Below, piece after piece: positions 26,991 through 30,955 of a stretch of DNA of 64,000 nt; position 1 is the first letter of the stretch, and each line of letters begins with the position of its first letter. Location: contig NC_086097.1 of NCBI RefSeq assembly GCF_963921235.1, positions 54,686,001 to 54,750,000 of the forward strand, given 5' to 3'. The DNA comes from Mobula hypostoma (lineage: Eukaryota). A program made the translations under genes and the position numbers. The notes below the pieces were generated by a model. The model was given only the letters and a program-made list of their open reading frames with translations. It ran no database searches and was not told the origin of the DNA.

Positions 26991-27254
26991 AAACTCACCG
27001 GCTTATAATAACCACATTTGAATCAATCCGAAAGAGAAAGCAACCACACTGAAATTCAGTTTGAAAACACACTGGTGGCATCCTTTATGATTTCTTATGC
27101 AATTTATAATGAGTTAATTTGCCTTTCTTTTGATTTATCTTAAGTTGCAATAAAGAACAAACTAAATTTTGCGAACATTAAGTACTCAAATAAAACTTAG
27201 GTTATGTTAAAAAAAAATGAATTTAGGACATAGGACTAATATAAAAGAACATAC

Positions 27255-27369
27255 CTCCATTTGTCCTTTTTCTGAAGTAGTCTGACAATAGGGAAGTTTC
27301 AGTGGTAGGACTGTTACAGTGGGACGAGGAAGTGTTGGTGGAAACTTTGCTCCTTTGCATGGAATGCAT
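27255..27369 (-). CDS. WDHD1: WDHD1 exon (~17), CIPCKGAKFPPTLPRPTVTVLPLKLPYCQTTSEKGQME
   Basis: aacag acceptor, GAG|gtatgt donor, 115 nt. Confidence 0.95.
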
Positions 27370-27464: not shown

Positions 27465-28410
27465 TGCAAGTATTAGTAATGCAGGTGTTAGGTGAAACCA
27501 GGTAAAGGGAGAAGTAGGTGGGTGTTATATGGGTGGGTGAATGCTATAGTAGATCAGTAGAGCTACTAGGACTTGATGTTTCAATCCCTGTGGTAAGTTG
27601 GCACTCTTGATGTTGGCAGTGGGCTTGAAGTGGTGACAAGAAGGGAAAGTAGGTACGTCATCGGGGTCATCAGGTAGGTATTCTCCTTCTTTGACGTTTC
27701 GTTGATAAGCCCACGACGTCTCCAGAGGGCTCAACGGTGCTACCTGGCATCCCAGATACACCCCCTCAGTTCCATACCCTCCTGTCTTCATCTTGCAGCC
27801 CAGTTGTTGTCTTTCCTTTTAATCCAAATCCAATTGCTGCTTTCTTCTGCTGCATTTGACAAGGACTTGATTGCTTGTTGGAGGGAGAGACCCCTCACCC
27901 CCATCTTCTTCAATAGACTGGTGGTAGATGTAGCAACGAATCCCCTGCATCCCACTTCTACAGGGAAAATCTTGGTCTTCCAGCCATTCTGGGCAGCTTC
28001 AGTTGCCAGTTCAGAGTACTTGGCCTTTTCCTTCTCATAAGCTTCTTCGACACCATCTTCCTATGGTACTGTCAATTCCACAACATATGCCAGCTTGGCT
28101 GTTGTGGACCACAGGACCATGTCTTGCCGGTGTGCTGTATCCACAATGTCTGGGGGAAACACGAGCTTTTTTTCTCAAGTCCACGTCCATTTTCCAATCC
28201 TGAGCAACCTGCAGAATGCTTACATCTTTTGATGTTATATGGTGCTCTGGAGGTTGGCCTGCTTGTACAAATCGTGTGATGTGGACATTTCCTGCCGATG
28301 TTTGTGGGAGAGCATTTGTGGTGATTCGCCTCTGTTTCAAGATTGATGCCAGGTGTCTGAGAACTTGGTTATGCCACCAAGTGTACCGCCCCTGGGTGAG
28401 GCTATTACAA
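27465..28410 (-). mobile_element. Hero-like non-LTR retrotransposon (restriction-like endonuclease), 5'-truncated, with 11-bp TSD
   Basis: Across frameshifts and stops: GRYTWWHNQVL...DWKMDVDL...DMVLWS...VELTVP*EDGVEEAYEKEKAKYSEL...GWKTKIFPVEVGCRGF; TSD ttgctatataa at 27454-27464 and 28411-28421. Confidence 0.85.
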
Positions 28411-28649
28411 TTGCTATATAAATCTTCCTGGTAATCTGAACTTTTTTAAAACTGCGTTGTTCAGGTTGCCTTACTTGAAACATGCTCATCAGTAAAAAAA
28501 ATAGACACTGCCACTGAGAAATTCATCATCCCAACCACTGGATTCCACTAGGAAGTTAAGACACCATCTCACCCTCTAGCAGAAATAGGACAGTGCAAAC
28601 TAGAAGTCAATATCCTCACAGATTATTGTAGACTCACTGGAATTGTTTT

Positions 28650-28919: not shown

Positions 28920-30955
28920 TTGATTACTACAGCACATAAACAGGCCTTTTGGCCTATCTAATCCGTGCCGAACTGTTATTCTGTCTAGTCCTATCGCCCC
29001 GCACCAGGACCATGCCCCTTCATACCCCTCTCATCCACGTACTTATCCAAACTTATCTTAGATCTTGTAATCAAACTTGCATCCATCACTTCCACTGGCA
29101 GCTTGTTCAACACTCACACCACCCTCTGAGTGAAGTTTGCCTTTAGGTTTCCCTTAAAGATTTCACCTTTCACCCTTTACCCTTAACATACAACCTTTAG
29201 TTCTAGTCTCAACCTATCTTAGTGGAACAAGTCTACTTGCATTTACCCTATCTATACCCCTCATAATTGTGGTACACCTCTATAAAATCTCCCATAATTC
29301 TCCTATGATCCAGGCAAAAATGTCCTAGCCTATTCAACCTTTTCTGATAGCTCAGCTGCTTAAATCTCAGCAACATCCTTGCAAATTTTCTTTGTGCTCT
29401 TTCCTGTAGGTAGGTGACCAGAACTGCACCCAATACACCCAATTTGGCCTCACCAATATCTTATACAACTTCAACATAACATCTGAACTCCTATATCCTG
29501 ACTTATAAAGGCCAATGTGCAAAAAAGCTATATTTATGACTCTATCTAGCTGTGACATCACTTTCAAGGAATTATGGATCTGTATACCCCTTGTTTGACT
29601 GCATTCCTCAGTACCCTACCGTTCACTGTGCAGACTAGCTTGTCCTACCAAAGTGCATTAAATTTTATCTATTTTTCAGTCCATCTGGAAAAATTGTTCA
29701 CCATGCCCCCCGTCTTGGTGTCATCCACAAAATTGCTGATCCAGGGTGCTACGTTATCATCTGAAACATTAATATAGAGGATAAATTGATCTCTGCAGCA
29801 CACCACCAGTCACAGGCCTCCAGAGAGGCAACCATCTATTACGACCCCATTACGACCCTGTGGCTTATCGTCCTTGATTACGCTCTGCGTCAAGCTACCA
29901 AAGATCATGAGAAGCTTGGTTTTACTATAAAACCAGGGCGAACCAAAAGGGTCAGACCAGTTACACTCACAGATCTCGATTTTGCAGATGACATAGTCCT
30001 CCTCTCTGACCAGATGGAGGAAGCACAGCAGCTACTGACAAAAATGGAAATTGAGTGCAATAAAGTTGGACTTCACCTAAATGCTAAAAAGACAGAGTAC
30101 ATGGCGTTTAACTGTGACGCAGGTACTCTCAAGACCGTAGAGAATGATACCATTAAGAAAGTCTTTGAATACAAGTACCTCGGGTCAAGAATGATGAGTT
30201 CGGAGAAGGACATAAAGATACGGAAGGCGCTGGCGTGGAGGGCTATGAACCCTGAAGGAAATCTGGAAGTCAAACCTGACCAGAGGGCTTAAAAAGAGGA
30301 TTTCATATTAGTCATAAAGTCCATTCTCACGTACGGATGCGAGACGTGGACACTCACCAAGACTATGCGAAAGTCTCTAGATGGTTGCTATACACGAATG
30401 CTCCGGATGGCTCTTGACGTGAGTTGGCAACAGCACATGATGAACGTCGAGCTCTATAACAACCTACCGATGCTCACCACTAAAATCGAGGCGAGAAGAC
30501 TGCAACTAGCGGGCACTGTCTACGCCACCCCGAGCTACCTGCCAGCCCAGTCATCATATGGGAACCCAAGCACGGGGAGATGAACCCTGGGTGCCCTCCC
30601 AAGACTATGGTCAACACGCTCCTAGAAGACAGCAGTGCGGCTAATGTAGAAGAACTGAACACACTGATGAGGGAGAGGGAGAAGTGGAGAGTCCGTGCTC
30701 GTGCCCGACGTCAGCCCCCTAGGCTTGGGTCGACATAGTAGTAGTAGTAGGCTTACCCTACTAAGGCAATATTGAATCTAATTTACTACTTCATCCTGAA
30801 CACCAAGCAACTGAGCCTTCTGAACGAGCTGCCCGTCCGAAGCTTTGTCAAAGGCCTTGCTATAGTCCATGAAGACAATGCCCACAACCTTTCCTTCACC
30901 GACTTTTCTGGTAACCTCCTTGAAAAGCTCTACAAGACTGGTTAGACACAACCTA
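28920..30955 (-). mobile_element. Decayed CR1, interrupted by the RTE-type insertion below
   Basis: LYKILVRP...VQFWSPTYRK; the CR1 sequence resumes after 30756. Confidence 0.75.
29868..30749 (+). mobile_element. RTE-group LINE, 5'-truncated RT and C-terminus, (TAG)n tail
   Basis: LTDLDFADDIVLLSD...GLHLNAKKTEYM...YKYLGS; YGCETWTL; LDGCYTRMLRMAL; apparent TSD ggctta at 29862-29867 and 30750-30755. Confidence 0.85.

Follow-up and report, generated by a model that had tools for sequence, protein, structure and literature searches.

A rewired hammerhead-like motif in the 3′ untranslated region of Hero retrotransposons, with a possible role in cutting head-to-tail transcripts

The 64,000-nucleotide stretch of DNA analysed here (hereafter, the window) carries on its minus strand the parts of a hammerhead ribozyme core in a non-circular order, within the remains of a retrotransposon. 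This raises the question of how such a core could close its stem II and what a cut at this place could do for the element. The first-pass annotation had put the insertion in an intron of WDHD1, co-oriented with the gene, and this location is confirmed: the minus strand carries, 190 nt downstream, an exon similar to human WDHD1 (E 4e-16), and exons encoding Mcl1_mid and Ctf4_C flank the Hero insertion on the minus strand. Only the C-terminal part of the Hero ORF is present in the window, with frameshifts and one in-frame stop. Its DNA is 80.5% identical to that of a metagenomic relative, L001, over 28403–27773; a Pfam search of the window's own peptides gave no match. The motif flagged by the annotation begins 67 nt past the stop codon of the broken endonuclease fragment. 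The element and its surroundings are laid out as follows.

27556..28445, minus strand: non-LTR retrotransposon fragment with a restriction-like endonuclease (RLE), very likely of the HERO clade, 5′-truncated and decayed, about 890 bp; upper boundary approximate
27788..28168, minus strand: coding region of the C-terminal RLE; stop codon at 27790–27788
27556..27658, minus strand: 3′ tail of the element, without poly(A), ending near 27556
27253..27367, minus strand: WDHD1 exon, boundaries from AG/GT splice sites; context only

The identity of the host was assessed from longer relatives, which carry a reverse transcriptase (RT), a CCHC zinc knuckle and a C-terminal RLE in one ORF. Two of them, L025 and L041, contain RVT_1 and zf-RVT domains and have R2 as their best PDB matches, and the RLE profile matches the R2 structure 9nl3 at E 0.002. 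When compared by eye with HERO-2_DR, as given in the part of the PMC5678591 supplement covered, the RT stretch of L025 is alike in 37 of 47 residues. On the strength of this match, the host very likely belongs to the HERO clade of RLE non-LTR retrotransposons, with which it shares a single ORF, an N-terminal zinc finger, RT, CCHC knuckle and C-terminal RLE, and the lack of a tie to rDNA. No description of a ribozyme or of a tandem life cycle in the HERO clade was found in the literature searched.

The core parts, stem III, stem I and the predicted cut (27715|27714), which the annotation had read on the minus strand, are all borne out. The same holds for the non-circular strand order, in which the blocks follow each other as S-G-C, the type SGC of Eckert 2023. 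When both strands of the 64 kb window are searched with a descriptor that asks for the three blocks and for at least 4 bp in each of stems I and III, this is the single match. The whole motif spans about 27770–27659 and is longer than the flagged stretch. From 5′ to 3′ it consists of a, hairpin, b, c, [III-NUH|I], [b′-GAAA-III′], c′, [I′-CUGANGA] and a′, located in the window copy as listed.

27763..27770, minus strand: strand a, 5′ side of junction helix a; only 27765–27763 pair in the window copy, and the run of G is longer by one in the host family
27736..27762, minus strand: junction hairpin; loop GAUG in the window, GACG in the host-family majority (difference at 27749)
27731..27735, minus strand: strand b, proposed upstream 10.x strand of stem II; 5/5 pairs with 27705–27701; its first base is a G, standing in for G10.1
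27724..27729, minus strand: strand c of the proposed stem I–stem II interaction helix; 4/6 paired in the window, 6/6 with host-family majority letters
27715..27720, minus strand: first part of block S, stem III 5′ strand; U16.1 is 27716 and C17 is 27715
27710..27714, minus strand: stem I 5′ strand; pairs with 27678–27674, one G-U
27701..27705, minus strand: strand b′, proposed 11.x strand of stem II; C11.1 at 27701
27693..27700, minus strand: block G, with G12, A13, A14 and A15.1 (27700–27697) and the stem III 3′ strand; stem III in the window is 27720–27716 paired with 27697–27693
27681..27686, minus strand: strand c′ of the interaction helix; the mismatches at 27682 and 27681 are peculiar to the window copy
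27667..27678, minus strand: stem I 3′ strand (27678–27674) and CUGAUGA core (27673–27667)
27659..27666, minus strand: strand a′, directly after A9; pairs with upstream strand a rather than forming a stem II

Relatives were gathered by protein alone. The C-terminal endonuclease domain led to 227 proteins, and an alignment of 49 of these to 283 confirmed stretches of metagenome DNA; the analysis covered the best 80. A strict descriptor matches 49 of 81 3′ UTRs (the window and the best 80 of 283), against 1 of 4050 shuffled 450-nt UTRs, none of 81 reverse complements and none of 64 coding stretches. From 37 non-redundant copies, with a mean identity of 50%, a covariance model was built. It recognises the motif in 71 of the best 80 of 283 Hero loci, 36 of these 71 having also served to train it, as well as in the window and in L081. 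The motif thus sits in the 3′ UTR of Hero-like elements, as had been proposed. Among the nine loci missed by the model, L005, L057, L073 and L077 end within ~100 nt of the ORF, L034 and L047 are internally broken, and L019, L050 and L079 have 308–501 nt of downstream DNA. In L070 and L071, relatives of L050 and L079, the motif lies ~570–670 nt after the ORF in the full four-way form described below; these four loci form a divergent lineage with a shorter protein C-terminus. A relaxed search, which alone matches 38 of 486 shuffles, was too loose, so its picks were curated: L010, L047, L049 and L078 were dropped, L020 was swapped for its strict pick, and L001, L026 and L072 were left out as lying too near the contig end. 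L031, L039 and L068, whose automatic register was off, were left out of the covariation and base-use tests. Structure-blind MAFFT misaligns strand b in the window's subfamily.

Searches for RLE-domain relatives in viral contigs found none. Forty viral-contig loci with the core-word pattern were rejected as chance matches: stem I reaches at least 4 pairs in 1 of 40, all three helices are present in none of them versus 30 of 37 Hero loci, and they score at most 19.8 bits with the covariance model. Contigs of prokaryote genomes yielded two loci, of which L081 has the motif and L082 ends too early. Hero sequences in bacterial assemblies, namely L081 (a Brevinema MAG) and the Vibrio-labelled proteins P0073 and P0079, are probably host contamination.

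Core positions 3, 7 and 8 were free in the search; like position 17, they were not scored, and all four obey the rules known for hammerheads. In 63 curated copies position 7 varies (U30/C15/A14/G4), and positions 3 and 8 are C3-G8 in 60 copies, U3-A8 in two and U3-G8 in one. Position 17 is never G (U27/C18/A18/G0), a single G17 call, in L049, having been dropped as a mis-registered and mutated copy. U16.1 is found in 63/63 and A15.1 in 62/63 copies, so that the curated set displays an NUH cleavage triplet next to the A15.1-U16.1 pair. G12 (59/63) and A9 (62/63) were rewarded by the search, and the invariance of U4, G5, A6, A13 and A14 is no test, since these were required by it. Together these letters give the C3-U4-G5-A6-N7-G8-A9 and G12-A13-A14 core of the hammerhead class. 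The U3-A8 swap, which perhaps arose only once here, has been reported in natural hammerheads as a covariation within the core (PMC4209133). G12 is replaced by A in four of the 63 copies, L069 and the siblings L062, L064 and L066 of one family; in the three siblings this reflects either CpG decay or spread without an active ribozyme. The annotation had staked its motif on conservation of the core and covariation of the stems across the family, and both held on the 80 loci (the best of 283).

Stem II is where the original drawing failed. The annotation had suggested an offset helix between UUAUC and GAUGA, a register that pairs in 72 of 185 cells (39%) and offers at least 4/5 pairs in 3 of 37 members. 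A canonical stem II was rejected as well: its closing pair, between the base after A9 and the base before G12, forms in 2 of 68 rows, and pairing across the helix (47%) does not stand out from shuffled sequence (42.6%); an alternative of 3–4 bp, mostly G-U, is offered by only 6 of 63 copies. The strand after the core, a′, pairs with the upstream strand a, which is directly followed by a hairpin and then by strand b. Strand b pairs with b′, the five bases before GAAA, in at least 4/5 positions in 34 of 37 copies and in 5/5 in 28 of 37, strand a and the hairpin having been placed without looking at b or b′. Under the nulls for this test, swaps gave a mean of 5.4 and a maximum of 12, and register shifts of 1–3 gave 1–9 of 37. 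No unpaired bases are left at the junction in the 34 copies with b/b′ of at least 4/5. Strand b starts with G in 34/37 and position 11.1 is C in 60/63, which rebuilds the usual G10.1-C11.1 pair. A perfect four-way junction, made of the core, a/a′, the hairpin and b/b′, replaces stem II. A stacked four-way junction could hold b/b′ under the A9-G12 pair while the A9 backbone crosses to helix a. We thus propose that b/b′ would serve as stem II, the A9–10.1 link being broken and closed by the four-way junction.

Covariation supports this arrangement. A G-test over all column pairs (94 columns, 34 copies) with a tree-based null gave 18 pairs at E <0.05, all of them inside the proposed helices (four in b, four in I, five in a, three in the hairpin and one each in III and c). 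Helix b is the clean test here, because the registers of a, the hairpin, I and III had been chosen by pairing beforehand. Given a structure-blind alignment, RNAalifold recovers a, the hairpin, c and III, and 21 of the 22 pairs show double changes. The covariance model contains neither b nor I; on its alignment these two helices are 93.0% paired vs 64.3% when shuffled and at most 40.9% when slid, and none of 500 shuffles reaches the observed value. The interaction helix c/c′ has at least 5/6 pairs in 33/34 copies, in a register chosen by pairing, and stems I and III adjoin the core and covary across the family. The full structure of 32 pairs is 90.6% paired, and no base is used twice in any of the 34 copies. 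The 3′ UTR fold of Hero elements is a real, conserved and strongly covarying RNA structure.

How does this fold relate to published hammerheads? The comparisons below draw on the portions of the cited papers that were covered. Non-circular permutations were reported in 2023, and those of the SGC type come only from metatranscriptomes (PMC10085705), none from genomes of named organisms, whereas the Hero motif belongs to animal elements. Type-SGC ribozymes read III, I, 11.x, III′, interaction strand, I′, core, often one U, 10.x and interaction strand (PMC10085705). The Hero motif shares with this type (HRIMA-1) the S-G-C order, the core letters, a 5-bp stem I, a short linker from stem I to 11.x (3–7 nt in Hero) and an interaction helix whose strands lie between III′ and I′ and after the 10.x strand. 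It differs in that the 10.x and interaction strands follow CUGANGA in type SGC and precede block S in Hero, where A9 leads into the extra helix of the four-way junction. With the same run from III to the core and the last two strands in front, the Hero fold looks like an SGC ribozyme reopened at the A9/10.1 link, and c/c′ would correspond to the stem I–II interaction helix of type SGC. For SGC-3, compensation experiments show that this helix is needed for cleavage (PMC10085705). Since some SGC ribozymes have no linker between stem III and the interaction helix (PMC10085705), the Hero linkers would add no obviously tighter constraint. Eckert et al. assumed the core blocks to be uninterruptible and counted six possible forms, and the pattern with which they searched for SGC ribozymes expects (U)G and stem II to follow the core immediately (PMC10085705). 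That pattern would miss the Hero motif because it needs a stem II strand after the core, and we do not file the motif as HRIMA-1 because its block C is not intact. With Rfam, no hammerhead match was found in the window motif (the only match was Xist_exon1, E 1.3), and its covariance models of hammerhead types I, II, III and variants matched none of 10 relatives either. The broken block C and the replacement of stem II by a four-way junction explain why the motif escapes both Rfam and published search patterns.

A pseudoknot (PK) variant of the hammerhead was reportedly described by Weinberg in 2015. In PK hammerheads helix II is replaced by remote pairing and the ribozyme is active (PMC11300833, Zhan et al. 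2024). The Hero motif resembles them in pairing with a remote strand in place of helix II, but the PK form keeps a circular order and makes one pseudoknot to a stem-loop, whereas the Hero motif has a non-circular order, and each side of its stem II finds its partner in a different upstream strand. A 2026 paper lists as hammerheads types I–III, extra-helix variants and the 2023 permutations only, in the text covered (PMC13725137), and nothing on extra helices in hammerheads was found in the part of PMC10162972 covered. We found no report of a Hero-type motif in the literature searched, a scope that leaves out most subscription journals and Repbase Reports, so that a prior description is possible. 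The wiring is new within this scope and, should the RNA cleave, as is likely, would constitute a new hammerhead variant.

The loops of the junction hairpin form a feature of their own. Palindromes of at least 6 nt occur in the loops of 24 of 37 copies, against a mean of 5.9 and a maximum of 13 in a loop-shuffle null that ignores kinship, and GACG tetraloops in 8 of 37, two copies counting as both types; neither type is present in some families (L021, L032, L024). The loop centres vary among several self-complementary hexamers that are too close to pair within one loop. Since the changes keep self-complementarity without allowing pairing inside the loop, they point to a kissing dimer, and GACG loops form kissing contacts in gammaretroviral RNA (PMC5874298). 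We take this as a hint that the junction hairpin loops may form kissing dimers.

With regard to the role of the motif, the annotation had suggested that cleavage forms the 3′ end of the element RNA. This part does not stand: copies keep the whole motif and a tail that ends ~158 nt past the predicted cut, near 27556. Loose contig ends gather at 27556 (52, 58, 27 and 4 records of four runs), the summed depth falls at the element end from ~1.7e5 to ~170 in run X1, and in solo relatives the element stops, with no poly(A), some tens of bases beyond the core. Among the contig-end rows listed there is no pile of ends at the predicted cut, where ends are anecdotal (L028, L047 and L078, and single contigs at 27713 and 27715). 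The L028 contig ends at 1279, exactly position 17, possibly by chance, with ~7 contigs ending in or just before the motif. Relative to L038, L078 (2390–2510) has lost 11 nt between short direct repeats, and with them the cleavage block; the deletion can be placed so as to end exactly at the cut and could stem from a jump of the reverse transcriptase at a nick or from plain slippage.

A second arrangement is found at the end of the tail. Among 51 loci with at least 250 nt downstream, 39 are solo and keep the motif, and in 12 the 5′ UTR of a next Hero directly follows the tail, without poly(A); 9 of these 12, first found by BLAST and ORFs, seeded the 5′ UTR profile that scored them, and all tandem junctions rest on metagenome assemblies of repeats, which can mislead. 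The conserved 5′ UTR core lies 102–153 nt past the predicted cut in 12 loci and 414 nt past it in L011. Solo siblings stop a few bases before the start point of the tandem 5′ UTR. L009 and L011 have the whole tail/5′ UTR junction in common despite divergence of their contigs. L041 and L025 are two open-ORF Heros lying head to tail on one contig, 70% identical in protein, a mixed tandem that fits template jumping or end-targeting better than rolling copying. The hairpin loops of L041 (2414–2600) and L025 belong to one palindrome type. Copying of two kissing RNAs in a single run would predict this, and it is also compatible with their kinship. The start of the Hero 5′ UTR is conserved and internally repeated over ~130 nt and may be an internal promoter or other RNA structure; this stretch lies 35–170 nt after the core in L023, L027, L038, L039, L041, L044, L052, L068 and L074.

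This arrangement resembles that of Penelope-like elements. They occur in tandem and start reverse transcription internally (PMC11167929; PMC6765202), and their pseudo-LTR hammerheads share with the Hero motif a retroelement host, tandem or partly tandem copies, the U3-A8 variant (PMC4209133; PMC11167929), a position shortly upstream of the next unit and insertions that keep the uncut motif. They differ in being mostly minimal type I ribozymes in GIY-YIG elements, the Hero motif being large, multiply pseudoknotted and part of an RLE (R2-group) LINE. The 5′ HDV-like ribozymes of R2 and other non-LTR elements share an RLE-type host and could likewise free an element from a longer transcript (PMC6765202; PMC7650587), but they are of another ribozyme class, and the Hero motif, being part of the 3′ UTR, comes to stand 5′ of a unit only where copies lie in tandem. 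Our main reading is that the Hero 3′ UTR contains a self-cleaving hammerhead of new wiring that cuts head-to-tail transcripts, to which, judging from sequence comparison, we give a probability of about 0.58. The three-dimensional fold and its catalysis are likely in themselves. Given catalysis, Penelope-like cutting of read-through RNA is, by analogy, reasonably probable, and processing of tandem transcripts appears the most likely role because in 12 of 51 loci the tail runs straight into the next 5′ UTR. The ribozyme would cut the read-through RNA of head-to-tail Heros 100–150 nt upstream of the next 5′ UTR, in a slow or conditional reaction that would leave uncut or re-joined RNA as the insertion template.

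Several points weigh against this reading. The break of the A9–10.1 backbone is without tested precedent in the literature covered, where Eckert et al. deem the block uninterruptible, and G12A is common to three siblings of one family. As to the Penelope-like role, most insertions keep the uncut motif, most loci are solo, and the L041–L025 tandem fits template jumping better. The preponderance of solo loci would favour an active hammerhead that acts within a single unit, as a protein- or fold-gated 3′ UTR cut that limits or times the RNA. It might destabilise unbound transcripts or switch mRNA to template; the pieces would stay paired via a, b, c and III, about 25–30 bp that would hold them together, and the RT would cross the nick or the RNA be re-ligated. 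Lesions at or next to the cut in L078 and L047 and the end of the L028 contig would agree with this, as would a hammerhead described in a mammalian 3′ UTR (PMC6765202) and the Penelope hammerhead, which acts with the help of protein and is dispensable for insertion in vitro (PMC11167929). Nevertheless, we regard a cut within one unit as unlikely: it leaves the recurrent seamless junction of tail and 5′ UTR and its inheritance in L009 and L011 unexplained, and the lesions are few, could be slippage, and do not appear in the gap and joint tables of the host-family contigs.

The same 3′ position and its retention in insertions would also suit a fold on which the RT-endonuclease docks, as on the R2 3′ UTR, with a vestigial or structural core that does not cleave. 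G12A in three sibling copies and the canonical 10.1-11.1 pair in only 2 of 68 rows point this way, yet a free N7, a position 17 that avoids G, the tertiary swap at 3-8 and a G-C pair exactly under A9-G12 are not what docking would lead one to expect. The helices are free of base-level conflict, and c/c′ matches a helix required for SGC cleavage; docking and catalysis are moreover not mutually exclusive, and docking without cleavage seems to us distinctly unlikely. If the loops kiss, cleavage might occur only as an intermolecular dimer in which two RNAs exchange blocks. The loop palindromes and GACG loops are in line with this, and Penelope hammerheads may work as dimers (PMC4209133). The helices are, however, long enough for a monomer, published SGC ribozymes with similar linkers cleave in cis (PMC10085705), and the families of L021, L032 and L024 lack both loop types, making strict dependence on dimers very improbable. 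Least credible is the initial drawing, with the offset stem II placed after four unpaired C's and the cut forming the 3′ end of the element: its five pairs can be drawn in the window copy, but its register is poorly paired across the family, and the element ends far beyond the cut.

A bolder extension of the preferred reading, self-cleavage of head-to-tail transcripts, would give Hero a Penelope- or viroid-like life cycle, which we offer tentatively and think unlikely. Tandem transcripts would be cut from ribozyme to ribozyme into permuted unit RNAs, whose two ends would rebuild the ribozyme and could be re-ligated into a circle; kissing contacts between loops at the four-way junction of the ribozyme itself would pair two such RNAs, and reverse transcription would begin internally, at the boundary of tail and 5′ UTR. 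If true, this would be a seventh hammerhead wiring beyond the six block orders thought possible and an R2-group retrotransposon run by a hammerhead across vertebrates and probably invertebrates. Should the motif simply cleave, the natural ribozymes would gain a large family whose catalytic core offers a port that could suit switch design, and an R2-group LINE would have a hammerhead instead of an HDV ribozyme. Even without cleavage, a conserved 3′ RNA structure of Hero elements is defined. The motif sits in a high-copy clade of animal retrotransposons and raises the question of how Hero RNA is made and primed; R2-group elements are now used for RNA-guided gene insertion.

The window copy itself belongs to a very high-copy family, with a summed contig depth of ~1e5 vs 13 in the flank (run X1). 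In contigs of four runs, the majority letters of this family differ from the window at 27676, 27679, 27681, 27682 and 27749, and the majority has one added base at 27760. With these letters stem I is stronger, helix c is complete, the loop is GACG and the G run in helix a is longer; given that it departs from the majority at pairing positions, the window copy is a decayed family member. In this copy the strand that follows the core offers the cleavage block an alternative partner (-13.7 vs -5.4 kcal/mol for helix a), which is used in the minimum free energy fold, and this competing pairing may render the copy inactive. A conserved switch based on this alternative pairing was considered and rejected, the pairing being strong only in the window's subfamily. 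The window copy is a truncated relic that probably folds poorly, and an effect of the predicted ribozyme on WDHD1 pre-mRNA is doubtful.

A few further repeats were noticed. In L001, L003, L006 and L022 a second conserved 3′ UTR segment of ~80 nt lies between the stop codon and the motif; it contains a GC-rich hairpin and a GACG-like loop and is found upstream of the hammerhead motif in several loci. The same WDHD1 intron holds a second, different non-LTR fragment on the plus strand (window 29765–30760), with an RT-like frame at 29765–30292 and a short tandem repeat near 30750. Just past the Hero 3′ end, a short purine-rich repeat at window 27494–27524 recruits many contigs and has its own loose ends at 27524, and it is probably a separate repeat family.
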